Assembly: GCA_016794125.1 (NCBI GenBank)
Contig: JAEUKT010000002.1
Span: 335,240 to 399,239, forward strand
Length of the DNA: 64,000 bases
Reading direction: 5' to 3'
DNA from: Alphaproteobacteria bacterium
GTDB taxonomy: Bacteria > Pseudomonadota > Alphaproteobacteria > Micavibrionales > UBA2020
Shown: one piece after another, positions 73 to 64,000 of the stretch
Position numbering within the stretch: the stretch's first letter is position 1
Layout of the letters: each line of letters opens with the position of its first letter
Translations under genes and position numbers: made by a program
The notes under the pieces: generated by a model
Told to the model about the DNA's origin: nothing
Seen by the model: the letters and a program-made list of their open reading frames with translations, nothing else
Database searches by the model: none

Positions 73-1074
73 TCAAGCACTTACGCGGAAGGCACGCACC
101 GGATTTTGCGGTTTTTCGGTGACCGTTCTGATGGCCTGCAACGTTTCCGCCACCGTGATCTGCGGCACGGGTTTGCCGGTCAGCACTAGCGCGGAGTTGT
201 TCGGCGTGATGGGTTTCCACGTCGCGGGGTCGCTGTAATAGCCGAAGAACGCAAACACCGGCGCGCCCGTGACGGCCGCGATATGCGTGGGGCCGGTATC
301 GTTGCCAAGCGTCAGCTGCGCGCCCTTCGCCAGCGCCGCGATTTCGGGCAAGGATGTTTGCCCGCTGACATCCACCGCGCGGCCACCGGTCATCGCCGCA
401 ATTTCCGCACACAACGCTTTTTCATCAACCGACGGCCCGCCGACCAGCACCGGCGTGATGCCGCGCGCGAGCATATACGCCGCAACTTCTGCGTAATTTT
501 CCTTTGGCCATTTTTTCAGCGGGCGGTTCGCGGCCGCAACCGGCACCAGCAACGCGTATTTGCCTGCAATCCCGAATTTCGTTTTTACTGCGTCAATTGC
601 TGCTTCCGACAGCATATCGGGCGGCAACAGCGGCGGCGATAATTTCTGGTTGATGCCCAGCACGCCCATATCCTGCAGCATGTCCTGCAGCAGCAGCGAT
701 ACGTGTTTCTTGCCGATCACCGCGCCCGCGCCGAAATCCTTTTCGTCATTTTCCAGCACGCGCAGTTTTTCGGGCGCATAGACGGGCGCATCGGGAAAGG
801 TTTTGCCAAGCGTATAGGGATCGTAAAAATTGAGGTTCACGGCAAAGCGCGGATCGAGCGCCAGCAGCGCATCACCCTCCCGCGTTTCCAGCTTGAAACC
901 GCCCAGCGTTTCAACCCAGTCGCGCGACCGCGCAGACCCGACCGCCACCAGCGGGATGCCTTCCTGCGCCGCATAATCGCGCAGCCGCGCAATCGCGGGC
1001 ACGCATAGCAGGCAGTCGCCGAGGTCTTTCGGGAGGTTGAGAACGATAGCTTCTGTTGCAGCGTCAGTTGTCAT
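73..1074 (-). CDS. Glycosyltransferase family 9 (LPS heptosyltransferase-like)
   Basis: 333-aa ORF. C-terminal GNDTGPTHIAAVTGAPVFAFFG block and the KKWP...VGGP layout are typical of GT9 ADP-heptose:LPS heptosyltransferases. Confidence 0.8.
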   Translation of the reverse strand: MTTDAATEAIVLNLPKDLGDCLLCVPAIARLRDYAAQEGIPLVAVGSARSRDWVETLGGFKLETREGDALLALDPRFAVNLNFYDPYTLGKTFPDAPVYAPEKLRVLENDEKDFGAGAVIGKKHVSLLLQDMLQDMGVLGINQKLSPPLLPPDMLSEAAIDAVKTKFGIAGKYALLVPVAAANRPLKKWPKENYAEVAAYMLARGITPVLVGGPSVDEKALCAEIAAMTGGRAVDVSGQTSLPEIAALAKGAQLTLGNDTGPTHIAAVTGAPVFAFFGYYSDPATWKPITPNNSALVLTGKPVPQITVAETLQAIRTVTEKPQNPVRAFRVSA

Positions 1075-1129
1075 TATTTTTCAGCAGTTTACCCCACTAA
1101 ACCGATGCCTTAATAATAGGCGAATTCTA

Positions 1130-1158
1130 TTGATATGTCAAATACGATATGCCATAAT
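1130..1158 (+). promoter_or_regulatory. Candidate sigma70-type promoter for the HAD hydrolase gene
   Basis: TTGATA (1130-1135), 17-nt spacer, CATAAT (1153-1158), about 40 nt upstream of the ATG at 1199. By-eye match only. Confidence 0.4.
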
Positions 1159-1198
1159 ACTGGCAATTCAAGGGGATGGTTTAAGGGGTGGGGATACC

Positions 1199-1963
1199 AT
1201 GACACAGCCGCGCAAAGCATCACAACGCACGCAAAAACTGCCGAAAAACCTGCATGTGATTTTCGACATGGATGGCACGCTGATGGACACCGAATGGGAA
1301 ACATCGGTCATCACGGCCGACCTTGCGCGTGAAAAGGGCTGGGACATTTCGACCGAAGACGTATTCCGCAACCATGCGGGCCTGGGCGCGCAGGAAAAAT
1401 TCATGTCGATCGCCAAAGTTTTCGGCGCAACGCCAACGCAAAGCGATCTGGAATATCTGGCCACCGAACATGAACGCCGCAAGGCGCAGATTTACCACCG
1501 CGATGAAATTCCCATGATGCCGAACGCAGCGGCGGCGCTGCAGGATTTGAGCGACAAGGGCGTGGATTTGAGCGTGGGGTCAAGCAACCCGTCGGCGCGA
1601 TCGAAACTCGGCCTTGATAAAACCGGCCTGCGGCATCACTTCAACGACGCGGTTTTCGGCCCCGACAATGTGGACGGCAAAAAGAAACCCGACCCCGCCG
1701 TGTTCCTGCGCGCGATGTTCGAAAAGAAATCGACGGAGAAAAACACGGTGGTGATCGAAGATTCCGAACCCGGCATGCAGGCCGGCCTCGCCGCGGGCGC
1801 GGTCGTGGTTGCGCTGCTGGATCACCGTTTCGGCAATGGCGCGGCGGCAGCGGCGAAAGTCGCGGCGTTCCGCAAGGCGGGCGCGGATATCATCATCCGC
1901 GATCTGGGCGAGCTGAAGGATTATATTTCGCCGCAGGTGCGGCACCGTCAGGCACGGATTTAA
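1199..1963 (+). CDS. HAD-superfamily hydrolase (beta-phosphoglucomutase-like subfamily IA)
   Basis: Motif I FDMDGTLMDTE, GSSN, KKKPDP and EDSEPG motifs. The internal ATG at 1199 was chosen; the 54-codon upstream extension of ORF 1037 overlaps the divergent GT9 gene and looks non-coding. Confidence 0.85.
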   Translation: MTQPRKASQRTQKLPKNLHVIFDMDGTLMDTEWETSVITADLAREKGWDISTEDVFRNHAGLGAQEKFMSIAKVFGATPTQSDLEYLATEHERRKAQIYHRDEIPMMPNAAAALQDLSDKGVDLSVGSSNPSARSKLGLDKTGLRHHFNDAVFGPDNVDGKKKPDPAVFLRAMFEKKSTEKNTVVIEDSEPGMQAGLAAGAVVVALLDHRFGNGAAAAAKVAAFRKAGADIIIRDLGELKDYISPQVRHRQARI

Positions 1964-2012
1964 AAGTCAACAAAGTACCCTCACCCTCTGAGAATTAATG
2001 CCATTGCGTAAA

Positions 2013-2507
2013 TCAGATAGAGTTAAAGTACGAGAAAACCCCAAGGTCTTTTCCGTCTCCGCCGCCCGTCAATAGTGACAACCCCCTGCTTTCGACGCTG
2101 CACGGGCCTGTGATTTGAAACCCCATTCCCATCCAGCCAAAGTTTATATCCTTCTTCGTGCCTTCATATTTTTTCAGATAATCCAAAGCGGCGAGATGTT
2201 GTTTTTTTGTCGGCGTTCCATTCTCCTTCCACCAGATAAGCCGCTCAAGAGTGCTCTTTTCGTACAATCTTTGTAACGTACCGTGCACCTCGAGCTGCTT
2301 GCAGTCACTAAAGTAAAGATCTTTATAGACACCGACATTTTTAGATGTAGGCAGCACGACCAAGATGTAATCTGTTTCCGAAAGCATAGTTAGCTTTTGC
2401 ACGCGCACGGAAACCCAATCGCCGCCAGCAGCGGCGGGCTGGGAATGAACCAATAGCGTTAGAAATAGGGGTAAAAAATATTTCAGTCGCGTTGATAAAC
2501 CGCCCAT
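2013..2507 (-). CDS. Hypothetical secreted protein (signal peptide), lower-GC gene
   Basis: 164-aa ORF with an N-terminal hydrophobic signal-like segment (LKYFLPLFLTLLVHSQPAAAGG). GGGAGA Shine-Dalgarno upstream of the ATG at 2507. A/T-rich codons contrast visibly with the neighbours. Confidence 0.6.
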   Translation of the reverse strand: MGGLSTRLKYFLPLFLTLLVHSQPAAAGGDWVSVRVQKLTMLSETDYILVVLPTSKNVGVYKDLYFSDCKQLEVHGTLQRLYEKSTLERLIWWKENGTPTKKQHLAALDYLKKYEGTKKDINFGWMGMGFQITGPCSVESRGLSLLTGGGDGKDLGVFSYFNSI

Positions 2508-2609
2508 TCTTCAATCTCCCCACGAATGAACTCAAATAAACGCGAATAAGAATAGCAAATCATGAATCGATGACAATAGGGACGGCGGCGCATTTATTCG
2601 TGTCCATTT

Positions 2610-2825
2610 GTGTTCATTCGTGGGGAGTTTGATTTTACTGCGCGCCGCTTTAAACTCGCCCACCGTTACGATGCGCGCCGGCGACCTGCCGGCGATATGC
2701 AGGTCGATGTCACGCATCATGTCGCGGTCGAGCAGCCTGTCGAGGTCAAGATCGTGGACAAGGACGATGTGGCCGCGAAACAAAAGGCTGCCGACATGCT
2801 GGAAACATTCACGGCGAAAACCTGA
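2610..2825 (+). CDS. Possible small ORF (strand ambiguous)
   Basis: 71-aa GTG-start ORF with GC-rich third positions, followed by a terminator hairpin. An 83-aa ORF on the opposite strand (2532..2783) is an equally plausible alternative. No recognisable SD. Confidence 0.25.
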   Translation: MFIRGEFDFTARRFKLAHRYDARRRPAGDMQVDVTHHVAVEQPVEVKIVDKDDVAAKQKAADMLETFTAKT

Positions 2826-2862
2826 CCGCTACCGGACGGTATGGCCTTCAGTGGGGGAGAAG

Positions 2863-2895
2863 AAAAAAGCCCCGCGCATCGCACGGGGCTTTTTC
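2863..2895. terminator. Bidirectional rho-independent terminator
   Basis: AAAAAAGCCCCGCGCATCGCACGGGGCTTTTT: GC stem flanked by an A-run and a T-run, between convergent ORFs (2610..2825 + and 2921..3409 -). Confidence 0.7.
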
Positions 2896-2920
2896 AACAG
2901 ATATTCGCGCGTATTTACGT

Positions 2921-3409
2921 TTAAGCGCCAAACTTCAGCCCGCCTTGTTTTTTCACCGGCGCGCGTTTTTCGGCTTCTTCGGCCTTTGTGGCAAGCGCGG
3001 CAATCACCTTGATAAAGCCAAATGTGGTCAGCAGGTGGTTTTCCGGCATCTTGTCCGCTTCTTTCAGGTAGTCCTTGAGCAGGGGATGTTGATTCTCGCC
3101 TTTATGCCGGCGAATAATTTCCGCCATCCGGTACACCATGACCGTGCTGTCATTCATGTCTCTCATCGTGAATACTTTGTTCAGCTTTTCAGCGTCTGCG
3201 ATATCGCGCTGAAGCTGCGCCAACTGCTCGCCTCTCGGCATCGTTTGTTCAATCCTGGCAACGAGATTCTTTTCCACTTCGTCGATGACAGCCGCCTGTT
3301 GCTTGTCGGGCGCGAGAACGAGGCGGGCAAAAAAGCGCTCCATTTCATGCCAATCTGAAATCTTGTTGAACTCCCGCATAAGTTTTTTAGCTTTCAATTT
3401 TTCAAACAT
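2921..3409 (-). CDS. Hypothetical helical protein with basic C-terminal tail
   Basis: 162-aa ORF with a GGGAGA SD 9 nt upstream of the ATG. No recognised motif. Ends ...EKRAPVKKQGGLKFGA. Confidence 0.6.
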   Translation of the reverse strand: MFEKLKAKKLMREFNKISDWHEMERFFARLVLAPDKQQAAVIDEVEKNLVARIEQTMPRGEQLAQLQRDIADAEKLNKVFTMRDMNDSTVMVYRMAEIIRRHKGENQHPLLKDYLKEADKMPENHLLTTFGFIKVIAALATKAEEAEKRAPVKKQGGLKFGA

Positions 3410-3748
3410 CTCTTCATCTCCCTCACATTAAAATTCCTGTCGCGCAGGGCTCGACCGCAAATACTGTTCAAGTGACAGTCGAACGCCGCCAGTTGTTCTA
3501 TGCATGATCGGGCTGTGAAGGTTGAGAAGCCTCTCCAAACGATACAACCGCGAACTTGCGTCCTTGGCTGTTTTGGGAATGCATGGAGATGACAGAGGAG
3601 AAACAATTCCGTCGTGGAAAACCACTCTGTCCCATAGTCGCATTCGGCTTAGGAGTAAGATAAGAGATTCTTAATATTATGTCAAATCCTTATCGAAAGA
3701 TTTATACTATCTATTTGCTTTAATACGACTTTATGGGAATCGCTGTTA

Positions 3749-4879
3749 TTAAAACCGTTGCGGTTTCGGTGCTTTTTCGACCGTGGCGGCTTTGAATTCG
3801 GTGACCGTCACGGCGGCATCGCGGCGGGCGGCTTCGGCGAGAAATTTGCTGACCGGGTTATAGGCGGTGCCCGGCGGGTGCATGTAGAAATCTTCCTTCA
3901 TATAGATGCTGTTTGATCGCATCAGGATATCTTCGCGTTTTCGCTGGTACTGGTCTTCGGTGTATTTATCCGCATTCGCGACCGTGGTGTCGATGATGCG
4001 GAGCAAATCCTGTTCATCCTTCGGCAGGTTGCGGCGGAAGGCGTGGGCGATGGCGCGGACGGAGACGCCGTCCATGAATTCCTGCTTGTAAATTTCCGCC
4101 AGCTGTTTCGAGGGCGTGACCGTCGCGGCATCGGGCGTATCGGCCAGATGCTGCCTAAAATCCTTCAGCGTGGGCGACAGCAGGAACTGCATGCGGTAAT
4201 TGCCGAAATAGGTGGTGGAATAATTATCCAGCCCGTTCAGCATGAAATCGGTGAATAGCGCGCGCGCAAAATTTGCATCGTCCTTGAAACTGTCAAACGG
4301 CTGTTTTTGCAAAAATGCCTTGGCGTGCTGCGCGTTGGGGCCGCCGTCGCGGTTGTTGAACAGATCATCCAGATATTCGGGGTGGCCGGATTTGGCAGCC
4401 TTGCAGGCGGCGAGGACTTCGGATGTGTAGGCATCGGCCTCCATCATCATCGACAGCATATGGGCGGTGCGCACATCCTTGATGCGCCGCGCGCCGCCGG
4501 TTTCGATGCTGCCCATGTCTTCCATCTGCAGCACGTGGCGGAATTCGTGATAGGTGGTGCGCGCCATGGCGACGGGGTCGCCGGTGTTGAGGATTTCAAC
4601 ATTGACGGTGGGGCGGCCCTGTTCCTTGGCCACCGCACCGAAGGCGTTTTTTAATTTTCGCTTGGACAGCACATCGACGGGGATATCGTTGCGGCCGATG
4701 GTTTCCTTCAGCGCTTCGCCGCCCGGCAGGTCGTTCAGCCGCTCCAGCATCTCGGCCTTGCGCATATCATTGCTGCCGTATTTTTTCTGCAGGCGTTCTT
4801 CCTGCCATGCGTCGATAGCGCCGACAATGCGGGCCTTGAACTGGTCGGCGAAACCGGGGGATGTCGGCGTTTGTGGCAT
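3749..4879 (-). CDS. Hypothetical protein with HExxH zinc-metallopeptidase-like motif
   Basis: 376-aa ORF. HEFRH at TTYHEFRHVLQMED, followed about 30 aa later by MMMEADAY (a possible third-ligand Glu). No signal peptide. Ends ...EKAPKPQRF. Confidence 0.6.
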   Translation of the reverse strand: MPQTPTSPGFADQFKARIVGAIDAWQEERLQKKYGSNDMRKAEMLERLNDLPGGEALKETIGRNDIPVDVLSKRKLKNAFGAVAKEQGRPTVNVEILNTGDPVAMARTTYHEFRHVLQMEDMGSIETGGARRIKDVRTAHMLSMMMEADAYTSEVLAACKAAKSGHPEYLDDLFNNRDGGPNAQHAKAFLQKQPFDSFKDDANFARALFTDFMLNGLDNYSTTYFGNYRMQFLLSPTLKDFRQHLADTPDAATVTPSKQLAEIYKQEFMDGVSVRAIAHAFRRNLPKDEQDLLRIIDTTVANADKYTEDQYQRKREDILMRSNSIYMKEDFYMHPPGTAYNPVSKFLAEAARRDAAVTVTEFKAATVEKAPKPQRF

Positions 4880-6283: not shown

Positions 6284-6997
6284 TTAACCCTTGGGCCCGG
6301 GCAGCGCTTTCGGCTTTTCCAGTTTTTTGGGAAGAATTTCACCCTCCAGCTGCGCGATGCGCGCGGCCATCTGTTCCATGCGCGCGGCGACTTCGTTGAA
6401 GCCGGCGATCATGGTGGCCTGTTCGGGCGACAGCGCGACCGGCACACCCACGCCAAGATCGGCGGCGGTGACGATGCGCGCGGCCTGAAGATCATCGCCT
6501 GCGGGCGCAAAGCCGATGCGCCCCTGCCGCACAAGCACGCCCTGATACACGGCGCGACCCGCCAGCCTGAACATGCCGTCTTCGCTGTCGATCGTCGCAC
6601 CCGCGTCTTTCAGCGCGGCCAGCAGCCCGCGCGCCTCGGCGGTGGAGCGCGGGAAAAAGGCGAAGATGCCCGCCTGCAGTTCCTGCGGCGTGATGCGCGC
6701 GGCTGCTGCGTCGAAGCCGGACAAATAAAAATTGTCGAAGCCGTCGGCGCTGGCGTTGATCCCTTCGGCCTTGCCGGTCGATACCATGATCGTCTTGTCG
6801 GCATCGAGATAGATGCTGCCCTTGATCGCGTTGTCCAGCTGCTGCGCGTATTCGGGTTTGTAATACCTGTAACCAAGGCGCTGCAGCTGCGTTGCGATGT
6901 ATTCGGCTTCCTCCATCGTGGCCGGCGTGAAGACGACCTTGCCGTCCGTGCCTTGCAGGAAGTCGCGCGTCAGCAATGGCGTCGTCCGCGCCGTCAT
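6284..6997 (-). CDS. Hypothetical protein, C-terminal coiled-coil plus Lys/Pro tail
   Basis: 237-aa ORF with no recognised motif. C-terminus ...MEQMAARIAQLEGEILPKKLEKPKALPGPKG. Confidence 0.55.
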   Translation of the reverse strand: MTARTTPLLTRDFLQGTDGKVVFTPATMEEAEYIATQLQRLGYRYYKPEYAQQLDNAIKGSIYLDADKTIMVSTGKAEGINASADGFDNFYLSGFDAAAARITPQELQAGIFAFFPRSTAEARGLLAALKDAGATIDSEDGMFRLAGRAVYQGVLVRQGRIGFAPAGDDLQAARIVTAADLGVGVPVALSPEQATMIAGFNEVAARMEQMAARIAQLEGEILPKKLEKPKALPGPKG

Positions 6998-7328
6998 GCT
7001 GTCACCGGAGATATGGAGGGAGTGGCTGCCATGATCCTGCCTGTTTTAAATACGGGGGCAGTAGAGCATGACCTAGATTATTATGTCAATACATTAATCT
7101 GGCGCCATTTTACAGATTGACATAGTCTACGAATCAGCTAGGGTATTACGTCCAAGCGGAGTGTCATAATACCAGACGGAGCGGTTTTCCTTGAGTGGAT
7201 CTGTTTCTCGCCCGTCACTTTCTTTTCACTCACGAAACAACCACGAATTTTTTCGGGTTGTTTTGGCTCATCGTGATCCGTTCACCTGAAAAAATCATGT
7301 GCAAAACAGGTTATCAAGGAGACGGACT

Positions 7329-7859
7329 ATGACTGACAACACACACGAACATTCGGCCGCCAGCTGGGTGAATGCCTTCTTTAACGAGATGGAAAACTGC
7401 ACCACCGCAGCGCAGGTCGCGCAGCTGTTCACCGACATGCGGCAGAACCTGAAAGACCCGCTCCATGACGAAGTCATGGCAGGGATCGAAGAAGGCCTGT
7501 CGAAGGACATCGCCACATTGCCGCCAGACGTGAAAAGCTACCTGAGAATGGCAATGGAGATTTTCGAGGAAGCGAAAAACGACAAATCAGGGCGCGGCGC
7601 GATTGCCGCCCAGCTGCTGGCCGCCAACAACGCGCTTTTGCCGATGAGCGAGGCCTTCAACCAGGTCGCGCAGGCGCGCGGCGACAAGCTGGGCAATACC
7701 GCAAAAATCTTCGTCGAAGAGGCCGCCAAGCTGACCGACGAACAGTATAACGACACGCTGGAGCAGGTGCGCCTGATGCTGCGTGTCAGCGACCGCGCTT
7801 CGGCGCCGCCCAAGCCGGCCAAGCCGGGGAACCCCTTCCGCAAGGGGCCGGCCGCCTGA
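7329..7859 (+). CDS. Hypothetical helical protein with Lys/Pro tail
   Basis: AAGGAGA SD 7 nt upstream of the ATG at 7329. 176 aa, ends ...SAPPKPAKPGNPFRKGPAA, with a terminator downstream. Confidence 0.6.
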   Translation: MTDNTHEHSAASWVNAFFNEMENCTTAAQVAQLFTDMRQNLKDPLHDEVMAGIEEGLSKDIATLPPDVKSYLRMAMEIFEEAKNDKSGRGAIAAQLLAANNALLPMSEAFNQVAQARGDKLGNTAKIFVEEAAKLTDEQYNDTLEQVRLMLRVSDRASAPPKPAKPGNPFRKGPAA

Positions 7860-7982: not shown

Positions 7983-8852
7983 ATGACCGCACAGGCGCCC
8001 GCCCGCTCCGGAACTGCCGAAGACAGCCGCTCCGCGCATGTAAAAAATGTCGAGGCGGCGGCAAAAATCGTCACATCGAAACTGGGCGCGCTGAAGCCGA
8101 AAATTGCGATCATTCTTGGCTCCGGCCTTGGCGGACTTGCCGACAAGGTCACCGATGCGGTGAAAATTTCCTACAAGGACCTGCCGGGTTTCCCCGTGCT
8201 GACCGTGGTCGGCCATTCGGGCGAATTGATCGCGGGCAAACTGGGCGGCGTGGATGTGATCGCCTTCAAGGGGCGCAAGCATTTCTATGAAACCGATGAT
8301 CCCTACCCCTTAAAAACCATGATCCGCACGGCAAAGGCCGTAGGCGTTGAGACGCTGTTTGTGTCGAACGCCGCAGGCGCGCTACGCCCCGACATGAAGG
8401 TGTCGGAGCTGATGGCGATTTCCGACCACATCAATTACATGGGCCTCAGCCCCCTGTCCGGCGCGAATGACGACGAATTCGGCCCGCGTTTTGTGCCGAT
8501 GACGGATGCATGGGATACGCATCTGCGCGCACAGTTAATCGTGGCGGCAAAAAAACTGGGCATCCGCCTTCATGAGGGTGTCTATATGGCCTTCCGTGGC
8601 CCCACATTCGAAACGCCCGCCGAAATCCGCATGGCCATTAAAATGGGCGCGGATGCGGTCGGCATGTCGAGCGTGCCGGATTGCATCATCGCGCGCCATT
8701 GCGGGCTGAAAGTCGTCGGCTGTTCGATGCTGACCAATATGGGCGCAGGGCTGTCGGATGAAAAACTCAGCCATGCGCATACGCTGGAAATGGCGGCCAA
8801 GGGCGCTGCGGATTTCGAACGCCTTGTGACGGAGTTCGTGAAACTGGCATGA
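7983..8852 (+). CDS. Purine nucleoside phosphorylase (trimeric PNP/inosine-guanosine phosphorylase family)
   Basis: ILGSGLGGLAD phosphate loop, GHSGEL, FVSNAAG, FETPAE and GMSSVPD motifs. Start at the ATG at 7983. Confidence 0.9.
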   Translation: MTAQAPARSGTAEDSRSAHVKNVEAAAKIVTSKLGALKPKIAIILGSGLGGLADKVTDAVKISYKDLPGFPVLTVVGHSGELIAGKLGGVDVIAFKGRKHFYETDDPYPLKTMIRTAKAVGVETLFVSNAAGALRPDMKVSELMAISDHINYMGLSPLSGANDDEFGPRFVPMTDAWDTHLRAQLIVAAKKLGIRLHEGVYMAFRGPTFETPAEIRMAIKMGADAVGMSSVPDCIIARHCGLKVVGCSMLTNMGAGLSDEKLSHAHTLEMAAKGAADFERLVTEFVKLA

Positions 8853-9607
8853 AGTTCTACGACAACCATAAATCGCCGAATTTCGACGACCGCGCCAAGG
8901 GTGAAAAGGTCGAAATCATCGTCGTCCATTACACCGCGATGGAATCGACCGAAGCCGTCTTGGAAAAATTCGCGGATAGAGCGTCGAAAGTCAGCAGCCA
9001 TTACCTGATCGGCGAAAACGGCGATATCTATCAAATGGTGGACGAGGAAAAACGCGCCTGGCATGCCGGCATTTCCAGCTGGAACGGCAAGGACGACGTG
9101 AATTCCCGTTCCATCGGCATCGAGATTTCGAACCGCAACGGCGAGCCGTATACGAAAGAACAGTTATTCGCGCTGACGATCCTGATCAAGGATATCCAGT
9201 CGCGCCATGACGTGCTGCCGGAAAATATCGTCGGCCATTCCGATGTCGCGCCCAACCGCAAGCAGGACCCGGGCGAACATTTCCCGTGGCAGAAGCTCGC
9301 CCGCCACGATATCGGCCGCTGGCCGAAACCGACGATTGCCGACAAGTTCAACGCGGCGGCGGTCGCCAAGAAACCGCAGGAATTGCGCGCCCTGTTCCGT
9401 CAGGCGGGCTATGGCGTGGACGGGCAGAAAACCAAAGACCTCGTCACCGCTTTCCAGCGCCGCTATGAACAGGAAATCTTTAAATCATCCACCGCCGTGC
9501 CGGGCGATGCGACCGCAACGACCGTGGCAAGATTGCGGGCGGTGGCGCGCATGAATTCATTTGCGAATAAAAAACCGGCTTCGCCTTCTGCCCCTGCGAA
9601 AAAATGA
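8849..9607 (+). CDS. N-acetylmuramoyl-L-alanine amidase (Amidase_2/AmpD-like) with C-terminal peptidoglycan-binding-like region
   Basis: VVHYTAM, SSHYLIGENG, AWHAGISSW, IGIEI and GHSDVAPNRKQDPGEHFPW motifs. C-terminal LVTAFQRRYEQ block. Start overlaps the PNP stop. Confidence 0.85.
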   Translation: MKFYDNHKSPNFDDRAKGEKVEIIVVHYTAMESTEAVLEKFADRASKVSSHYLIGENGDIYQMVDEEKRAWHAGISSWNGKDDVNSRSIGIEISNRNGEPYTKEQLFALTILIKDIQSRHDVLPENIVGHSDVAPNRKQDPGEHFPWQKLARHDIGRWPKPTIADKFNAAAVAKKPQELRALFRQAGYGVDGQKTKDLVTAFQRRYEQEIFKSSTAVPGDATATTVARLRAVARMNSFANKKPASPSAPAKK

Positions 9608-10347
9608 ACCTGCTTATTTCCGACGCCCCTTCCCCCAATTTCGGCCCACGCGCGGGTGGCAAGAAGCCGGAATATTTGATTTTGCATTACACCGATACGC
9701 GCACGACATTCGATGCGCTGCAGATATTGCAAAACCCCGAGCGTCAGGTGAGTTCTCATTACCTTGTCGGCGATAACGGACAGGTGATGCGGCTGGTGCC
9801 GGAGGAGATGCGGGCATGGCATGCGGGGAAATCGTGGTGGAGCGGCGAGACCGATATCAATTCCACATCCATTGGCATTGAAATCCAGAACCCGGGGCAT
9901 GGCTATGGCTATGTGCCCTTCCCGTCGGTGCAGATGCAGGCGGTGGCGGAGCTGTGCCGCGACATTATTTCGCGCCACCGCATCCTGCCTTATCACGTGC
10001 TGGCACATTCCGATATCGCGCCCGCGCGCAAGAAAGACCCGGGCGAGCTGTTCCCGTGGGAATACTTGGCCGCCCAGCATGTGGGGCTGTGGCCGAAGCC
10101 GACCGACCGCGATGAAATCGACGCGGAAGACATCATGGACGACCCCGACGCCATCAAATCGCAGCTGACGCATTTCGGCTATGACCCGAGCCTTGACCTG
10201 ACGACCCTCATTACTGCCTTCCAGCGGCATTTCGAGCCGGCGGTGTTTGCGCAGGAGGAGAAGGTTGGTGTGGTCAGCCTTAACACCGTTAAGTTGATAA
10301 AAGCCGTTGTACGTCAACGGCTTGCGCTGCGCCCGAAAATCGCCTGA
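9604..10347 (+). CDS. N-acetylmuramoyl-L-alanine amidase (Amidase_2/AmpD-like), tandem paralog
   Basis: ILHYTDT, SSHYLVGDNG, AWHAGKSWW, IGIEI and AHSDIAPARKKDPGELFPW motifs, plus LITAFQRHFEP. 4-nt ATGA overlap with the upstream paralog. Confidence 0.85.
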   Translation: MNLLISDAPSPNFGPRAGGKKPEYLILHYTDTRTTFDALQILQNPERQVSSHYLVGDNGQVMRLVPEEMRAWHAGKSWWSGETDINSTSIGIEIQNPGHGYGYVPFPSVQMQAVAELCRDIISRHRILPYHVLAHSDIAPARKKDPGELFPWEYLAAQHVGLWPKPTDRDEIDAEDIMDDPDAIKSQLTHFGYDPSLDLTTLITAFQRHFEPAVFAQEEKVGVVSLNTVKLIKAVVRQRLALRPKIA

Positions 10348-10399: not shown

Positions 10400-10770
10400 G
10401 CCAGAAGGCCGGATAACCGCGGGTATGCAAATATTCGAGGAAAGTCCGGGCTCCAGAAAAACACGGTGCCGGTTAACGGCCGGCGGGGGCGACCCCAGGG
10501 ATCAGTGCCACAGAAAATATACCGCCCAGCAATGGGTAAGGGTGAAAAGGTGCGGTAAGAGCGCACCGCGGAACTGGCAACAGTTTTGGCAGGGAAAACC
10601 CCACCGGGAGCAAGGCCAAATAGGGAAGGCATGATCATCTTCGGATGGTCGGGTTTGTTTTTTAACCTCGCCTTCCGGGTTGGCTGCCAGAGGTGACAAG
10701 AGATTGTCACCCCAGACGAATGGTTATCGCCGCGCAAGCGGTACAGAACCCGGCTTACAGGCCTTCTGGC
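10400..10770 (+). ncRNA. rnpB: RNase P RNA, bacterial type A
   Basis: Universal GAGGAAAGTCCGGGCTCC block near the 5' end and ACAGAACCCGGCTTA near the 3' end. P1 helix GCCAGAAGGCC (10400-10410) pairs with GGCCTTCTGGC (10760-10770). T-run follows. Ends approximate to +/-5 nt. Confidence 0.9.
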
Positions 10771-10795
10771 ATATTTTTTTGAGACCAAATGGAGT

Positions 10796-12088
10796 GTGCA
10801 TATCTTGAACTACGATCCCGTTGAAGGCGTGAATTACATTTTCGACCGCTATGCGTTCATGAACCAGATTTTGCAGGACGGCAAAAGCGAGCTGCGGATT
10901 TCGGAATCCTCGACCCGCGACGACATGAACAAGGCCTTCACGATTGCGCGCGGCATGTACCACCCCGACCGTCAGGCGCGCACGGGTGACGAGATGAAGC
11001 AAAAGGCGGAGCAGAAAACGAAGCTGATCGCCGATTGCGAACGCTTCCTGCTGAACCCCGAATTAAAATCATTCTATGACGATAAGCTGGCGCATTTCCG
11101 CGAGCATAAGCCGCATCTGGTATCTGATAGCGGCATCGCCATCATCAGCCTTGGCGAAACCGTGTTCGATATCGGCGCGCTTTTGTCGGACGATGTCGTC
11201 GATACGTCGGATTTCGAAGCCCGCGTGAAGGCATTGACGCAGTATGACGACAAGCGCGTGCCGCAGCTGAAATCGCTTTACGACATGATGCCCGACAACG
11301 CGCAGGTGAAATCGCTGTACCGTGACGCGGTCACATCGGAATATATTTACCTCGGTTTCCTTGAAGATTCCGCATGGGCAAAAGTCGGCTACATGAACCG
11401 CAAGGAAAAAGAAGAAGGTTTCATGATCCGCGCGTCCGATTATACCAAACGTGTGGATGCGGCGCTGGAAAAGGCAGCGGCGCGCGACATTGATTCCACC
11501 ATCGAAAGCCACGGCGCGGTCGCCCGCATCGGCATGGCGAAAACCCCGCTGCTGCTGGATGCCGCCGAAGGCACGGAAATGCCCGGCATGGAGCTGATGG
11601 CACCCGACCAGCACAAACGCCTGATGGAAAAATTCAAGGATGTCGCGCACAAGAATTTCGAAATCCGCGCCGAATATGTGCGCGAGGTGGCAAAACGCAA
11701 GGAAGCAGCGCTTGAAACGCTGCTGAACCTGTCGGAGATCGAGCCGATTGGCGTGGAGGCCGCAGGCCAGACGAAATTCGATTTCTACATGATCAACCCC
11801 GCGCATGACGACAACCCTGCGCGCGTCGTGTACCGCCTGGAACTTGATCTTGAAACCGGCAATGCCGGCATCGGCGAAATGTATCGGGAGCCCCTGACGC
11901 TCGATCAATTGAAGGCGCAGGAAGGCACCCGCGCCGGTTTCGCCGTGATCCGCAATATCGAGATTTCGGACATCATGCTGGAAACGGCGGCCGCATCGGA
12001 GCGGTTCCTGAACACCCGCGTGAAGGACGTGGAGCAAACACCCGCCCCCGCCGCGGCCAAACCGAAAAACAACGCGCCCCGTCCGTAA
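10796..12088 (+). CDS. J-domain (DnaJ-like, HPD motif) protein with uncharacterised C-terminal region
   Basis: N-terminal ~70 aa fits the J-domain pattern: ...DDMNKAFTIARGMYHPDRQ...KQKAEQKTKLIADCERFLLNPELKSFYDDKL, with HPD at codons 56-58 (nt 10961-10969). No zinc-finger or Gly/Phe region. The start may be the GTG at 10796 or the TTG at 10805, which has better spacing from the GGAG. Ends ...AAAKPKNNAPRP-stop. Confidence 0.75.
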   Translation: MHILNYDPVEGVNYIFDRYAFMNQILQDGKSELRISESSTRDDMNKAFTIARGMYHPDRQARTGDEMKQKAEQKTKLIADCERFLLNPELKSFYDDKLAHFREHKPHLVSDSGIAIISLGETVFDIGALLSDDVVDTSDFEARVKALTQYDDKRVPQLKSLYDMMPDNAQVKSLYRDAVTSEYIYLGFLEDSAWAKVGYMNRKEKEEGFMIRASDYTKRVDAALEKAAARDIDSTIESHGAVARIGMAKTPLLLDAAEGTEMPGMELMAPDQHKRLMEKFKDVAHKNFEIRAEYVREVAKRKEAALETLLNLSEIEPIGVEAAGQTKFDFYMINPAHDDNPARVVYRLELDLETGNAGIGEMYREPLTLDQLKAQEGTRAGFAVIRNIEISDIMLETAAASERFLNTRVKDVEQTPAPAAAKPKNNAPRP

Positions 12089-12099
12089 CGGAGTTTTGT

Positions 12100-12462
12100 A
12101 TGCCGACGTTCAAGCGACTGGACGAACACAGCCTTCTGGTACGTACCGACCTTGCCGAAGCCAAGGAATGGGGAGGCGCGCGACTGAGCCGCATTTTCAA
12201 TTTCAAGGCGCGGCAGCTGACCACCATTTACGAGCGCGGCGGCACGCAGGAGTTTTCGATCCCGAACGGCAACTATTCGTCAAAAACCGGATACACCGCC
12301 GCCGTCACCTCGTCGATGACCGTGCAGAATTTCCGCGACATCGAAGGCACGGAAGAAATCGCCGAAATGCACGCCAAGCTGGTCAGCCTGAACGGCCGGC
12401 CGCCGAAACTGGAGGATGTGCTGCCCGGGCAGATGAACAAAAAAGCGAAGCTCGGCGGCTGA
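12100..12462 (+). CDS. Small protein, unassigned family (copy A)
   Basis: 120 aa, GGAG SD, 11 nt after the J-domain gene. Shares RIFNFKARQ(L/I)T, F(R/S)D(I/L)(E/D)...E(I/V)A(E/D)MH and G.PP.L blocks with copies B-E. Confidence 0.65.
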   Translation: MPTFKRLDEHSLLVRTDLAEAKEWGGARLSRIFNFKARQLTTIYERGGTQEFSIPNGNYSSKTGYTAAVTSSMTVQNFRDIEGTEEIAEMHAKLVSLNGRPPKLEDVLPGQMNKKAKLGG

Positions 12463-12507
12463 ACGGCGTTAAGTCGGGCGTTAAGTTTATTTTCATAGGA
12501 GTGGAAA

Positions 12508-12828
12508 ATGGCAGATACTGAAGTTTATGAAAAAATGAACGACTATACGTTGTCGGCCATGACCGAATTCTCCGCCCAGTCGGGTTCCGACCCCATGCTG
12601 CGTCGGATTTTCAATTTCAAGGCGCGCCAGATTACCAACATCTATTCGCAATGGTACGGCGCCAGCGTTTCCAATTCGATGGTCATCCAGAAATTCAGCG
12701 ACCTCGACAGCCTTGACGAAGTCGCCGACATGCATAAACGCCTGCGGGACAAGGGCGGCAATCCGCCGCCGCTGGAGGTGGATGCGCTGGGCAAATCCAC
12801 CGCGCGTCCGGCGACGCTCCGCCCGTGA
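12508..12828 (+). CDS. Small protein, unassigned family (copy B)
   Basis: 106 aa, AGGAG SD. Contains RRIFNFKARQIT...FSDLDSLDEVADMHKRLRDKGGNPPPLEV...ATLRP-stop. Confidence 0.65.
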   Translation: MADTEVYEKMNDYTLSAMTEFSAQSGSDPMLRRIFNFKARQITNIYSQWYGASVSNSMVIQKFSDLDSLDEVADMHKRLRDKGGNPPPLEVDALGKSTARPATLRP

Positions 12829-12885
12829 GCAAATTGCTGCACCGAAATTCCGCCGATTTTGCACCGTAATTGCACAGCCCTTCCG

Positions 12886-12914
12886 TTGACGGATTCGGCA
12901 ATCCCAAGTACATT
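12886..12914 (+). promoter_or_regulatory. Candidate promoter of the dcw cluster
   Basis: TTGACG (12886-12891), 17-nt spacer, TACATT (12909-12914), about 120 nt upstream of rsmH. By-eye match only. Confidence 0.3.
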
Positions 12915-13035
12915 ATAAACGGGGTTGAATAAGGCTTGGTTTTTCAGGGGTGTTTAGCCAGCCGGATTTGACGTAAAGCAATAAATAAATGGCAGCGGCG
13001 GCAAGCCGCGCCGAAGTTTTTGGGGTTGCACAGGC

Positions 13036-14016
13036 TTGGCCGATTTTAGCGACATTGTTTCCGCGACGGAAACAAGCGGGCACATCCCGGTGATGCTGCG
13101 CGAGGTGCTGCAAACGCTGGCACCCCGTGACGGCGGTGTCTATGTCGACGGCACCTTTGGCGCGGGCGGTTATACGCGCGAAATCCTGAAAATGGCGGAC
13201 TGCAAAGTTTATGCGATCGACCGCGACCCGCATGCGATTGACCGCGCGGATGCGATGGCGAAGGAATTCAACGGACGCCTGATCCCCATGCAGGGCTGTT
13301 TCGGCGATGTAACCGCATTGCTGGCGGAACACGGCGTCGGCAAGATCGACGGGATTGTGCTGGATTTGGGCGTGTCGTCGCTGCAGCTATCGACGCCGGA
13401 GCGCGGGTTTTCCTTCATGCATGACGGGCCGCTGGATATGCGCATGAGCCTTGACGGCACTTCCGCCGCCGATGTGGTGAACCGCGCGCCGGAAAAGGAA
13501 ATCGCGGATATCCTCTACACCTATGGCGAAGAACGCGCATCGCGTGCGATTGCGAAGAAAATCGTCGCCTCGCGCCCCATCACCACGACAAAGGCTTTGG
13601 TGAACGTCATCCATAGCGTATTACCGATGCATGGCGGCATGAAGACCGACACGGCCACCCGCACCTTTCAGGCACTGCGCATTTTCGTGAACGACGAGCT
13701 GGGCGAGTTGGAACGCGCACTTGAATCGGCGGAGCAGATTTTGAACACCGATGGCCGCCTTGTCGTCGTGTCGTTCCATTCGCTGGAGGACTGGCGCGTG
13801 AAGCATTTCCTGAAGGAAAAAACCGGACGCACATCGAACGCGTCGCGCCACCTGCCCGTCATGCAGGACACGCGCAAGCCCAGTTTCACGGTCGAGGCGA
13901 ATAACGGGTTGTCGCCTCAACCCGACGAAGTCCTTGCCAACCCCCGCTCACGTTCCGCCCGGCTGCGTTACGGCATCCGCACGGCGGCACCCGTCATGGA
14001 GGCTCTGCATGCGTAA
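13036..14016 (+). CDS. rsmH: 16S rRNA (cytosine1402-N4)-methyltransferase
   Basis: HIPVMLREVL, DGTFGAGGYT, DRDP, DLGVSS and SFHSLEDW motifs. TTG start. First gene of the dcw cluster. Confidence 0.95.
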   Translation: MADFSDIVSATETSGHIPVMLREVLQTLAPRDGGVYVDGTFGAGGYTREILKMADCKVYAIDRDPHAIDRADAMAKEFNGRLIPMQGCFGDVTALLAEHGVGKIDGIVLDLGVSSLQLSTPERGFSFMHDGPLDMRMSLDGTSAADVVNRAPEKEIADILYTYGEERASRAIAKKIVASRPITTTKALVNVIHSVLPMHGGMKTDTATRTFQALRIFVNDELGELERALESAEQILNTDGRLVVVSFHSLEDWRVKHFLKEKTGRTSNASRHLPVMQDTRKPSFTVEANNGLSPQPDEVLANPRSRSARLRYGIRTAAPVMEALHA

Positions 14017-38335: not shown

Positions 38336-39349
38336 TTACATGCCGGGGGGGCGCGGCGTGCTGGGCGGGTTAGGCTTTTTTGGCGCGGGCGGCGCAAGGC
38401 TGAGCGCCACGCGGTCGTTCAGGAAACCATCGACTTCCTTCAGCCACTGGTCGCGCAGCTCGTCGCGCTCCATCCAAATTTCGTGCTTTGCGTCGGCAAT
38501 TTCAACCTTTTTCGCATGCGGCAGCAGCGTTAATGCGCGGTCCTGCGCGGCGCGGTCGACAATTTTTTCCTGGCCTGCGATCTCCATCAGGATCGGCGTT
38601 TTGATGGCTTTCAGGTAATCTTCGTCGTTCAGAACGTCGATAGATGAAAAGGTGTGATAGACCCAGCCATAGGTCGCATCGCCGATTTTCAGCGCGTCGT
38701 TGTTCTTGACGATTTCCTGATCGGCGGCGAAGCGCATGGGGTCGCTGGTTTTATTATTGCCCTTAAACGGTTCTTCCGACCAGTCGGCACCGCCGGGGAT
38801 GTATTTTTCAAGGTAGTTGCCGGCCTTGGCGAATTTCGCCATCTGGCGCGCCAGTTTTTTCGGCATCCCGTTCGTGACGATATCGATCATGGGCGAGGTG
38901 AGGATGGCGGAATCAAATACGCCGTCATGTTCGTTCAGGTAACGCAGGCCGATATGCGCGCCCATCGAATGGCCCATATAGATCAGCGGTTTTTTCGCGG
39001 CGGGTTCGACGACGGTGGTCACGAACTGGTGCAGCGTTGCGATCTGTTCGTCGTAGCCTTCCTGATGCGCCTTCTGGCTGCCCTTGATGAATTTTTCCGA
39101 CCCGCCCTGCCCGCGCCAGTCCAGCATATAAACGTCAAAGCCGCGCGCATTCAGATCGTGCATGACTTCGTAATATTTCTCGATATTCTCGCGGAAGCCG
39201 CTGCCGATGACGATGCTGCCTTTCGACACGCCGTCGGCCTTCGACACGCCATAGCGGATATCCGCACCCTTGGCATTCTTGAAATGCCCTTCGGTGAAAT
39301 TCGGCGGCTGGTTGAATTTTGCTGGCAACATACCCTTAAGGTCCCCCAT
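38336..39349 (-). CDS. Alpha/beta hydrolase, lysophospholipase (PldB/monoacylglycerol lipase)-like
   Basis: DWRGQGGSEK oxyanion region and nucleophile elbow GHSMGA. C-terminal acid/His region (IADAKHEIWMERD). Pro/Lys tail ...LAPPAPKKPNPPSTPRPPGM. Confidence 0.8.
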   Translation of the reverse strand: MGDLKGMLPAKFNQPPNFTEGHFKNAKGADIRYGVSKADGVSKGSIVIGSGFRENIEKYYEVMHDLNARGFDVYMLDWRGQGGSEKFIKGSQKAHQEGYDEQIATLHQFVTTVVEPAAKKPLIYMGHSMGAHIGLRYLNEHDGVFDSAILTSPMIDIVTNGMPKKLARQMAKFAKAGNYLEKYIPGGADWSEEPFKGNNKTSDPMRFAADQEIVKNNDALKIGDATYGWVYHTFSSIDVLNDEDYLKAIKTPILMEIAGQEKIVDRAAQDRALTLLPHAKKVEIADAKHEIWMERDELRDQWLKEVDGFLNDRVALSLAPPAPKKPNPPSTPRPPGM

Positions 39350-40319
39350 GTTGCGGCGGCGCTGCTTTGGGCGGCACCGGTTTCAGTTTTATCTGGTCTG
39401 CGATAAATCCGTCGATTTCTTTCCACCATGCGCGGCGCTGCGTGTCGCGGTCGATCCACAGCGCGTGCAGGCCGCCGTCGATTTCTACCGTTTTCGCGTT
39501 CGGCACCAAACGTCCGGCGCGGCGCACGGATTCGTTGTCGATCACGTCATCCGCCCCGCCGATGCCGAACAGCACGGGCGTTTTGATGGAGCGCAGGAAA
39601 TTTTCGCCCGATGTTTTCTCGGTCGATTTGAACAGGCTGTCCACGTAGCCGATTGTCGGGTCTTCGGCCTTTAATTTGTCGTTCAGCAGCATGAAGGATT
39701 TGTGCAGGCCCATGCGCACGGGGTTTTTTTCGCGCATATCCTTGCGCTCTGCCGTCAACTGGCGGGTCATCGCGCGGCGGCCGTCCTTGATGCGCTGGTT
39801 GGCAAGGCCGCCTTCGACCGCAGCCGCGAAGGCCTGCTTCATCAGGTCTTTCGCCGTGCCCATCGGGCGCATTTCAACGAGCGGCGTTGCGAGGACCGCA
39901 AAATTGAAATCGGATTGATGCTGTTCAAGATATCGCAACGCCACCTGCCCGCCCATGCTATGTGTGCTGAGGAACAGCGGCTGCGATTTGTCGAACTGCA
40001 CGATTTCCTGCCGGAATTTGCGCAGGTCTTCGATATGGTCTTCGACCGTCTGGCCTTTTTTCGACGGCGGCGAATTTTTTTCGGAGCCGCCATGCCCCGC
40101 CCAGTCCATCATCCAGACGGCGTAACCGCGATCGAGATATTCGTGGATGGTTTCGTGATAGGCTTCGCGGAAATCGGCATAACCGGTCGTGATGACGACG
40201 GTGCCTTTTTTCTCCCCCGCCGGTTCGGCATGGCCATAGCGGATCTTTTTACCAGTAGTGCTGGTAAACGTATCCTCCTGCCATCCATCCGGTTCGAAAA
40301 ACCGGTTTAAATTCGCCAT
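39336..40319 (-). CDS. Alpha/beta hydrolase, lysophospholipase-like (tandem paralog)
   Basis: DWAGHGGSEK, THSMGG, DGGLHALWIDRD; tail ...KLKPVPPKAAPPQHGGP-stop. ATG at 40319 preferred over the TTG at 40334. The 3' end overlaps the start of the downstream paralog by 14 nt. Confidence 0.8.
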   Translation of the reverse strand: MANLNRFFEPDGWQEDTFTSTTGKKIRYGHAEPAGEKKGTVVITTGYADFREAYHETIHEYLDRGYAVWMMDWAGHGGSEKNSPPSKKGQTVEDHIEDLRKFRQEIVQFDKSQPLFLSTHSMGGQVALRYLEQHQSDFNFAVLATPLVEMRPMGTAKDLMKQAFAAAVEGGLANQRIKDGRRAMTRQLTAERKDMREKNPVRMGLHKSFMLLNDKLKAEDPTIGYVDSLFKSTEKTSGENFLRSIKTPVLFGIGGADDVIDNESVRRAGRLVPNAKTVEIDGGLHALWIDRDTQRRAWWKEIDGFIADQIKLKPVPPKAAPPQHGGP

Positions 40320-40502
40320 AGGGGGCTCTTTCAATTGCGCGGAAGCAGAGTTGAGTATACTTGGAAATAAACTTATTTCCAGACGCTACTTTATTCAAAA
40401 AAGTTGCGCCCATCAGGAACTTAGCGAAATTTTCGCGCGATTCAAAATGCTGCGACGCAGCGTTATTTCACGCTGAACATAAAGCAGAAATTTTGGCGGC
40501 AA

Positions 40503-63207: not shown

Positions 63208-63513
63208 ATGTCCCTCACCGCCGCCTTCAACGACGATTATCCGACTGAAATGGTGAACAGTTACGTGCTGACCGTCCAATATGATGTGGCGGGTTACAGC
63301 CAGGTGATGGCCTATGATTTCAAGGCGCGGCTGATGACGCTGCGCACCGATGGTTATGCGGATGCGGGCGTGCGCATGATCCCGTTTTCACAGCTGGACC
63401 GCGACAGCCTTGTGGAATTGCGCGACCAGCTGATCGAGCTGGGCGGCAATCCGCCGCCGCTCGCCCCCGAACCCAATACGCTGAACAAGCCCGCACGCGG
63501 CCTGAACCCGTAA
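63208..63513 (+). CDS. Small protein, unassigned family (copy C)
   Basis: 101 aa. Contains MSLTAAFNDDY...YDFKARLMT...PFSQLDRDSLVELRDQLIELGGNPPPL...LNKPARGLNP-stop, with an AAGGAAT SD. Confidence 0.65.
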   Translation: MSLTAAFNDDYPTEMVNSYVLTVQYDVAGYSQVMAYDFKARLMTLRTDGYADAGVRMIPFSQLDRDSLVELRDQLIELGGNPPPLAPEPNTLNKPARGLNP

Positions 63514-63525
63514 AGGAATTCCCAC

Positions 63526-63819
63526 ATGTCGCTCAGCGCAGATTTCAACAACACCCACAACCCGCAAAGAATGGGCGATAACGTGCTGCGCATGGGGTAC
63601 GACTCTGTCAGCTTCTTCTATGACTTCGCGCAACGGCTGCTGGTGACCTCCTACCGCTATAGCGATGCGGGCGGCACGACCGTTACGCCGTTTTCGCAGC
63701 TGGACCGCGAAACGCTGATTGACATGCGCGACAAGCTGGTGGAGCTGGGCGGCAAGCCGAAGGAACTGCCGCCGGAAGGCCCGACGCTCAACAAGCCCAC
63801 GCGCGGCCTGAACCCGTAA
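63526..63819 (+). CDS. Small protein, unassigned family (copy D)
   Basis: 97 aa. Contains MSLSADFNNTH...YDFAQRLLVT...PFSQLDRETLIDMRDKLVELGGKPKEL...LNKPTRGLNP-stop. AAGGAAT SD, 12 nt after copy C. Confidence 0.65.
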   Translation: MSLSADFNNTHNPQRMGDNVLRMGYDSVSFFYDFAQRLLVTSYRYSDAGGTTVTPFSQLDRETLIDMRDKLVELGGKPKELPPEGPTLNKPTRGLNP

Positions 63820-63829
63820 GGAATTTACC

Positions 63830-64000
63830 ATGGACGTCAAAGCCGCATTCAACGAACAATACAAGGCGACGATGGCGAATGCCTATGTGCTGGATACCAC
63901 CTTTTATTCGCCGACTCTGGGTCACATCTACCAGACGTTTGATTTTATGGCGCGCACCCTGATCTCGGGCCGCAGCAGCAGTTCCGCAGGATTCACCGTG
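63830..64000 (+). CDS. Small protein, unassigned family (copy E, truncated by window end)
   Basis: MDVKAAFNEQYKATMANAYVL...FDFMARTLIS matches the N-terminus and first motif of copies C and D. AAGGAAT SD, 10 nt after copy D. The ORF runs off the window. Confidence 0.55.
   Translation, partial: MDVKAAFNEQYKATMANAYVLDTTFYSPTLGHIYQTFDFMARTLISGRSSSSAGFTV

Follow-up and report, generated by a model that had tools for sequence, protein, structure and literature searches.

This locus raises the question of whether a J-domain protein gene and the short paralogous genes behind it form one Hsp70-linked module or are independent genes that share a neighbourhood. The genes occupy positions 10,796 to 12,828 of a 64,000-nucleotide (nt) stretch of contig JAEUKT010000002.1 (assembly GCA_016794125.1, Alphaproteobacteria bacterium, order Micavibrionales), hereafter the window, and an earlier interpretation made from the letters alone (the sequence-only reading) had proposed them as a candidate Hsp70-linked module. 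Across related loci, the J gene and the array of small genes proved separable in both directions, and on balance the evidence leans towards a lineage-specific J co-chaperone standing beside an independent small-protein family, the two being neighbours and at most optional partners.

Linkage of the J gene and the small-gene array

The J gene, the two small genes that follow it (copies A and B) and the flanking genes that recur in related genomes are arranged in the window as follows.

10401..10773, + strand: RNase P RNA gene rnpB (Rfam RF00010, 312.5 bits, E=2e-101)
10805..12088, + strand: J-domain protein gene, 427 amino acids (aa) from TTG 10805 (the mechanical open reading frame, ORF, from GTG 10796 gives 430 aa)
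12100..12462, + strand: small-family copy A, 120 aa (family hidden Markov model, HMM, E=3e-36)
12508..12828, + strand: small-family copy B, 106 aa, the last copy, adjoining rsmH (family HMM E=4e-46)
13036..14016, + strand: rsmH (mraW), which opens the division and cell-wall (dcw) cluster and is followed by ftsL, ftsI, mur genes and ftsZ (ORF and conserved synteny)

Related loci were sampled by a genome scan with the J alignment (21 loci), a metagenome scan with the small family (10 loci) and individual protein look-ups. In each of them both families were scored by HMM, the flanking genes by tblastn and rnpB by nhmmer, and the loci fall into three classes (L005 ends inside the J gene).

Class a: amidase, amidase, rnpB, J gene, 2-5 small genes, rsmH, ftsL, ftsI; found in the window, L001-L004, L006-L012 and L037, with J identity of 48-100%
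Class b: rnpB, 4-7 small genes, rsmH, no J gene; found in L022 (=L023), L024 (=L025), L029, L030 (with L031), L033, L035 and L036
Class c: J gene alone in another context, with no family member within 8 kb; found in L013-L021 and L026

Adjacency of J homologues to small-family members in other genomes, on which the sequence-only reading had staked its proposal beforehand, was found, with the class a order kept in 13 loci at J identities down to 48%. The pairing is nevertheless not obligatory, as at least seven array loci lack a J gene, with 60-130 nt from rnpB to the first small gene, and nine more distant J homologues have no family member within 8 kb. The proposed Hsp70-linked module is thus sustained as regards the J-domain and the conserved adjacency and fails as an obligatory pairing, and because of the separability in both directions the claim was lowered from an obligatory module to a facultative neighbourhood. 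At every array-bearing locus that reaches far enough upstream, rnpB occupies the same position.

In a neighbour-joining tree of RsmH and FtsI, the class a loci fall in one clade with the exception of L011 and L012, which nest among class b lineages. The simplest reading of this nesting is that the order rnpB-J-array-rsmH would be ancestral to the array-bearing lineages sampled, the J gene having been lost more than once while the array was kept. Two class b loci are part of large contigs (2.64 and 2.56 Mb), and the protein search gave no J homologue on any contig of such a length, so that these two genomes probably lack the J family altogether.

The tight spacing between J gene and array is not universal, since in L009 a 149-aa ORF with a transmembrane-like segment (9441-9890) and in L006 approximately 770 nt without a clear gene (9281-10055) intervene. 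In the metagenome-assembled genome of L010 (5924-7373) two overlapping ORFs together make up the J gene, which was broken either by a frameshift (pseudogene) or by an assembly error, and the four-copy array behind it is intact. In Micavibrio aeruginosavorus (L026) the J gene lies between prfA and ispG with clpB, which encodes a disaggregase working with DnaK, approximately 4 kb away; the stand-alone J gene and clpB together account for positions 1064-3670 and 8001-9257 of this locus, with prfA, prmC and two further genes between them. This proximity may be coincidental.

The strongest form of a link between the two families would be a dedicated Hsp70 module in which the C-terminal domain of the J protein binds the small proteins and passes them to DnaK as clients, or in which the small proteins act as adaptors or modulators in the manner of CbpM. 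The co-orientation and 11-nt spacing of the genes, their adjacency in 13 loci over deep divergence and the lower copy number of J-positive arrays (2-5, as against 4-7 in J-negative arrays) are all in keeping with such a module, but the array loci without a J gene and the J genes without an array are not, and together with the protein-level evidence below they make it rather unlikely.

Identity and architecture of the J protein

The J protein comprises three parts, the boundaries of the second and third being those of an AlphaFold model (mean predicted local distance difference test score, pLDDT, 83.5; predicted template modelling score 0.73).

10847..11107, + strand: J-domain, residues ~15-101, helices I-IV (HPD at nt 10961-10969; Pfam DnaJ over residues 30-92)
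11108..11734, + strand: middle helical region, residues ~102-310, long helical hairpins in the model, without known relative
11735..12088, + strand: C-terminal part, residues ~311-427, modelled as a beta meander, a helix and a Pro-rich basic tail

The N-terminal J-domain described by the sequence-only reading was confirmed, including its HPD tripeptide (codons CAC-CCC-GAC). The check that it had named, a match to the Pfam DnaJ profile PF00226, gave a divided result for the window protein, with a match at E=4.9e-5 whose 23.8 bits do not reach the gathering threshold of 27.8 bits. Among 42 homologues with identities of 24-93%, 19 match Pfam DnaJ at E<=0.01 and H53, P54, D55 and R56 are invariant, and three orthologues carry a precomputed PF00226 match. 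The best 25 PDB matches of the 42-homologue profile are all J-domains, aligned over helices II-IV. In the model, the HPD (residues 53-55) sits between helices 38-51 and 62-83, that is, in the loop between helices II and III, and Foldseek recovered 2ej7 (target-normalised template modelling score, TM, 0.69; root-mean-square deviation 2.3 Å), 2dmx (TM 0.60) and 2qsa (TM 0.61), each with a probability of 1.00, in agreement with a four-helix J fold. The matches to the NCBIfam DnaJ and ActJ models are confined to the J-domain part of those models, that to TIGR02349 covering profile positions 6-65 only. On this family-level evidence, i.e. the homologue matches, the profile, the invariant HPDR and the superposition of the model, the J-domain is established as genuine but divergent.

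Ahead of helix I, the J family carries a further conserved motif, EGxHYIFDRYAF. All 45 homologues found come from Micavibrio or from unclassified alphaproteobacterial genomes and metagenome-assembled genomes, some of them mislabelled by binners, and nearly all are 417-453 aa long.

The approximately 320 residues beyond the J-domain are predicted to form long helical hairpins, a five-strand beta meander (strands 311-315, 324-331, 340-348, 354-359 and 378-382), a long helix (390-411) and a Pro-rich basic tail ending ...PAPAAAKPKNNAPRP. No match to this remainder was found in Pfam, NCBIfam or the PDB (profile and Foldseek searches). The protein has no glycine/phenylalanine-rich (G/F) region, CxxCxGxG zinc finger or DnaJ_C region and gave no Pfam DnaJ_C or DnaJ_CXXCXGXG match; as the sequence-only reading had it, the C-terminal domains of DnaJ, CbpA and DjlA are missing, and Pfam finds the J-domain alone. 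Neither the J protein nor four small copies matched any PADLOC (anti-phage defence) or PHROG (phage) model. Taken together, the protein is very probably a specialised class III J co-chaperone, and there are good grounds to expect that it stimulates DnaK.

A stretch near the C-terminus of the J protein had been thought to echo the motifs of the small proteins. This echo received no profile support, and homology between the two was rejected at an hhalign probability of 0.1% with full alignments and 0.24% with residues 300-415. The models do have an order of elements in common, a beta meander followed by a helix and a tail, and this predicted layout may serve as a lead only. The likeness in element order and Pro-rich basic tail could be counted in favour of a dedicated module, but hhalign finds no homology behind it and the tail is not peculiar to these proteins, a comparable one being present on 5 of 52 other window genes (~10%).

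Pro-rich basic tails as a mark specific to the J and small proteins were rejected on that count. Basic Pro/Lys-rich tails were noted at 38336-39349(-), 39336-40334(-), 44954-46891(-), 7299-7859(+), 6284-6997(-) and 8849-9607(+), in two alpha/beta hydrolases, an M3 peptidase, a peptidoglycan amidase and two unknown proteins, and none of these tail-bearing proteins has an obvious N-terminal signal peptide. The tails in the window could be a lineage-wide compositional habit or a common C-terminal tag.

Gene boundaries, transcription and selection

The three ORFs of the sequence-only reading (10796-12088, 12100-12462 and 12508-12828) are present, with gaps of 11 nt from the J gene to copy A and 45 nt from copy A to copy B. 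Its length of 430 aa for the J protein is that of the ORF from GTG 10796, but TTG 10805 is the likelier start, giving a protein of 427 aa that begins MNYDPVEG, because a GGAG lies 10 nt upstream and orthologues begin at the same residue (with TTG in L001 and ATG in L004). From this start, 32 nt separate the J gene from the end of rnpB on the same strand. A pattern scan found no terminator-like hairpin between rnpB and the J gene, and read-through from rnpB is conceivable; nor did it find a + strand terminator-like site between the J stop and the copy A start. Against orthologues, the J gene and copies A and B show purifying selection, with ratios of nonsynonymous to synonymous substitution of 0.08-0.23 (J gene 0.10-0.22, copy A 0.08). 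Upstream of rnpB lie two paralogous Amidase_2 genes (peptidoglycan amidases), and in L022 and L024 the orthologues of the rsmH/ftsI region carry the Pfam domains Methyltransf_5, PBP_dimer and Transpeptidase.

The small-protein family

Copies A and B were correctly recognised as paralogues of the genes near 63 kb in the window, a single family HMM matching copies A, B, C and D and the truncated fifth copy, with E-values of 1e-18 to 4e-46. A word-indexed search gathered 338 family clusters at 90% identity and an exhaustive search 387 representatives at 50% identity, with 89 to 338 clusters homologous to copy B. As far as these searches reach, this is a previously uncharacterised family restricted to Micavibrio-like alphaproteobacteria. 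Nearly all members are stand-alone proteins of 95-130 aa, and a single genome carries several arrays of them. The copies tested had no Pfam match at E<=1, no PADLOC model and no PHROG at E<=0.1. In NCBIfam no credible model was found, the sole match being a chance-level one of copy B to FimbAdhEcpD (E=0.12). Literature on Micavibrio DnaJ, ankyrin or secretion yielded nothing on either the J family or the small family. One member, P0137, bears the JGI product name 'negative regulator of replication initiation', which looks like a stray annotation, as copies A and B have no Pfam match at E<=1.

Copy B was modelled (pLDDT 80.8) as five antiparallel strands, a helix (residues 70-81) and a disordered tail, and a Foldseek search of the PDB gave nothing convincing in the best 50 matches (best E=0.1, TM<=0.42). 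In this model the RIFNFKARQ motif would form the central strand, the FSDLDSxDEVxxMHxKL motif the last strand together with the helix, and GGxPPxL the opening of the tail. The sequence-only reading had taken the FNFKAR core for a hydrophobic patch of the kind that DnaK binds. DnaK-type motifs are common in any protein, and the proposal was not upheld, the core being a predicted buried central strand (pLDDT ~93) that, like the tails, is equally conserved in genomes without a J gene. Both observations also count against a dedicated module, as does the lack of resemblance of the small proteins to modulators of the CbpM/MerR type.

On average, the small proteins have an acidic body and a Pro-rich end with a net positive charge over the last 20 residues, the tail being net positive in 83% of 241 members. 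Among the four complete copies of the window, three have an isoelectric point (pI) of 4.4-5.75, and copy A is basic (pI 9.3).

Two further identities were considered for the family and rejected. Kinship with ubiquitin was suggested by matches to polyubiquitin, whose E-values are strong only through summed repeats and fall to ~0.2-1.6 for constructs of one or two units; the local match joins family profile positions 66-92 (copy B residues ~62-88, segment FSDLDSLDEVADMHKRLRDKGGNPPP) to ubiquitin residues 16-42, and the predicted small-family fold is not a beta-grasp. The GG-x-PP hinge prompted a comparison with bacteriocin precursors, i.e. a double-glycine leader followed by a Pro-rich peptide, which is unlikely given that the N-terminal part is a folded domain; no C39-peptidase transporter is present among the window ORFs scanned.

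Array dynamics and the second array

The window holds the beginning of a second array, which is cut by the window end.

63208..63513, + strand: small-family copy C, 101 aa, opening the second array (family HMM E=1e-20)
63526..63819, + strand: small-family copy D, 97 aa (family HMM E=1e-18)
63830..64000, + strand: small-family copy E, cut by the window end (translation MDVKAAFNEQYK...FDFMARTL)

Copies C and D are 47% identical, and the start of copy C used here is also called on other contigs. On other contigs carrying an identical copy D this array has at least six copies, L040 showing six consecutive members, so that most small-family copies of this genome (at least six at 63 kb) lie away from the J gene. 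All six genes of the array end ...LVELGGxPPxLxPEAxTLNKPxRGLNP, and their N-terminal beta parts diverge. An isolated T4BSS_DotI_IcmL gene (61128-61814, E=4e-15) with a signal-peptide-like N-terminus lies 1.3 kb upstream of the array; its neighbours are aconitase and a DUF1192 gene, and no further Dot/Icm genes were found among the window ORFs scanned.

Copy number also varies in the array next to rsmH. There are four copies in close relatives whose J proteins are 91-93% identical, and the two copies of the window are orthologues of copies 2 and 4, copy A being 92% identical to copy 2 of L001. In L001, copies 2 and 3 both match copy A at their 3' ends, the pattern expected of a deletion through recombination between paralogues. 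Three tandem pairs of paralogous enzymes in the window, namely two Amidase_2 (8849-10347, ~43% identical), two Hydrolase_4 (38336-40334) and two M3 oligopeptidases (44954-48834), suggest that the genome is generally prone to tandem duplication.

Ankyrin fusions and a possible delivery signal

The small domain also occurs in larger proteins. Four clusters carry Pfam-confirmed ankyrin repeats with the small domain at the C-terminus, others of the larger members are tandem two-domain proteins, and ankyrin genes adjoin small-gene arrays in L024 and L042. The recurrence of ankyrin repeats with the small family, fused or clustered nearby, was noted for P0251, P0253, P0283 and P0304 and at L024 722-1681(-), L042 10134-12383(-) and L027 124-2558. 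A gene for a DUF6782 putative metallopeptidase lies in the window at 3749-4879(-), and on an unrelated contig the fusion-type small member P0307 has a gene of the same family as a neighbour, along with Sel1 and Smr genes.

A possible explanation for this modular use is that the small domain and its basic Pro-rich tail act as a C-terminal delivery or targeting signal, by analogy with type IV secretion substrates, whose signals are of the BID-plus-tail or XVIPCD kind, or with type I substrates that depend on a chaperone, as HasA does on SecB. The arrays would then encode exported proteins of a predator or symbiont, kept export-competent by the J protein and DnaK. The placement of the small domain at the C-terminus of ankyrin-repeat proteins, the net positive tails of most members, the retention of the C-terminal ...LNKPxRGLNP peptide in the 63-kb array while the beta part varies, the DotI/IcmL-like gene upstream of that array and the ankyrin and Sel1 genes nearby would all suit such a role. 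However, no secretion-system cluster lies beside any array examined, the DotI-like gene is isolated, most members are stand-alone and without cargo, and the best conserved copy stands in a housekeeping context beside the dcw cluster. In addition, the genome of M. aeruginosavorus is reported to have type I and type II secretion systems and neither type III nor type IV (PMC3189940), which weakens the type IV model at least for that species. A delivery signal of this kind is therefore given little credence. The same low standing applies to the wider form of the idea, in which domain and tail would be an unrecognised delivery or docking unit of Micavibrio-like predators or symbionts, used alone, in arrays or on ankyrin cargo, and the J protein, with a C-terminus of like strand, helix and tail layout, its cytosolic Hsp70-recruiting escort for export or assembly.

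The position upstream of rsmH

The small-gene array next to the dcw cluster stands always directly upstream of rsmH-ftsL-ftsI in the same orientation (L001-L012, L022-L037; window 12829-13035), the slot normally occupied by mraZ, which usually sits directly upstream of rsmH. Copy B, the best conserved copy, always adjoins rsmH. In the window as in these loci, the dcw cluster opens with rsmH and mraZ is absent, and the small copies tested have no Pfam MraZ match at E<=1. A pattern scan placed a promoter-like site between copy B and rsmH, which weakly suggests that the array and rsmH are transcribed separately.

The array might accordingly be a lineage-specific replacement of MraZ that controls cell division or cell-wall synthesis, with the J gene as a passenger. 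Such a replacement would fit the constant position of the array in the absence of mraZ, the conservation of the rsmH-adjoining copy and the two peptidoglycan amidase genes upstream, and it is at odds with most of the protein evidence: beyond the missing Pfam match, no MraZ structure is among the best 50 Foldseek PDB matches (best TM 0.42, E>=0.1), and the complete copies of the window other than copy A, which is basic, are acidic and in this unlike a DNA-binding repressor. Other arrays lie away from the dcw cluster, and the promoter-like site, as weak evidence, points the same way, leaving this explanation highly improbable.

Proposed roles of the two families

The reading towards which the evidence leans, a lineage-specific J co-chaperone beside an independent small family, may be put in mechanistic terms as follows. 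The HPD loop of the J protein would recruit DnaK and stimulate ATP hydrolysis by DnaK/Hsp70, and its own helical and beta C-terminal part would select the target or the place of action. The small proteins would constitute a separate family whose folded domain and tail serve as a protein-interaction or targeting unit, which would account both for its combination with ankyrin repeats as a module and for the conservation of the C-terminal peptide. Whatever the job of the small proteins, it does not need the J protein, since arrays are kept where the J gene has been lost and J genes occur where there is no array. In class a genomes the small proteins would be the most plausible targets of the J protein, the coupling being optional; a functional link is possible there, because the adjacency is conserved and the spacing operon-like, and direct functional coupling of any kind between the two is, as a whole, doubtful.

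Several points weigh against this reading. A true functional operon would equally account for the tight spacing and for a gene order that is kept at J identities as low as 48%, and J-negative lineages could compensate with another J protein. The probable lack of the J family in the two class b genomes with large contigs rests on a word-filtered protein search, not on whole-genome scans. As regards the co-chaperone itself, the Pfam DnaJ score of the J protein is under the curated cut-off, and of the window ORFs put through Pfam none is dnaK or another Hsp70 gene, the 642-aa ORF being CcmF.

Comparison with known systems

The sequence-only reading had cited the cbpA-cbpM pair of Escherichia coli as a precedent, and the analogy holds for the gene layout only, in that a small gene in the same orientation comes shortly after the gene for a J protein. 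The C-terminal domains of CbpA are of the DnaJ type and CbpM belongs to the MerR/DafA-like modulators, whereas the small genes here are 2-7 paralogues of an unrelated beta-rich family that is also arrayed without a J gene. The association of a J protein with a small neighbouring gene is thus a known theme, which is facultative here.

With mraZ the array has in common its slot directly upstream of rsmH and its orientation. It differs in being multi-copy, with most copies acidic, and in having no sequence or fold similarity to MraZ.

The signal domains of type IV secretion substrates, such as the Bartonella BID domain with its positively charged tail and the Xanthomonas XVIPCD, resemble the small family in combining a domain of approximately 100 residues with a charged tail. 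Such a unit may stand by itself, be duplicated or close a longer protein, which in the small family carries ankyrin repeats. BID is all-helical and the small domain beta-rich, none of the arrays was found to have a type IV secretion gene cluster next to it, and the likeness is one of architecture only.

The closest counterparts of the J protein are the class III (type C) J proteins, i.e. DjlA, the HscC partners DjlB and DjlC, and HscB. Like these it has an N-terminal J-domain with the HPD between helices II and III, lacks the G/F, zinc-finger and DnaJ C-terminal substrate-binding domains, and has a C-terminal part of its own that is presumed to give specificity. It differs from them in that its remainder of ~320 residues matches none of theirs in sequence or fold, HscB giving weak fold matches only (target-normalised TM 0.34-0.38, E 0.27-3.2), in its extra EGxHYIFDRYAF motif, in its confinement to Micavibrio-like lineages and, as compared with DjlA, in having no transmembrane segment.

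Class III J proteins make Hsp70 specific, and to our knowledge few bacterial examples have a known target. The J protein described here combines a new C-terminal architecture with a distribution limited to a predatory or host-associated alphaproteobacterial order, and the large uncharacterised family beside it fills the mraZ position, grows and shrinks through recombination and has members fused to ankyrin repeats. Should the two not interact, the small family would still be an unexplained and strongly conserved feature of these genomes; should they do so, the pair would offer a tractable case of Hsp70 targeting.

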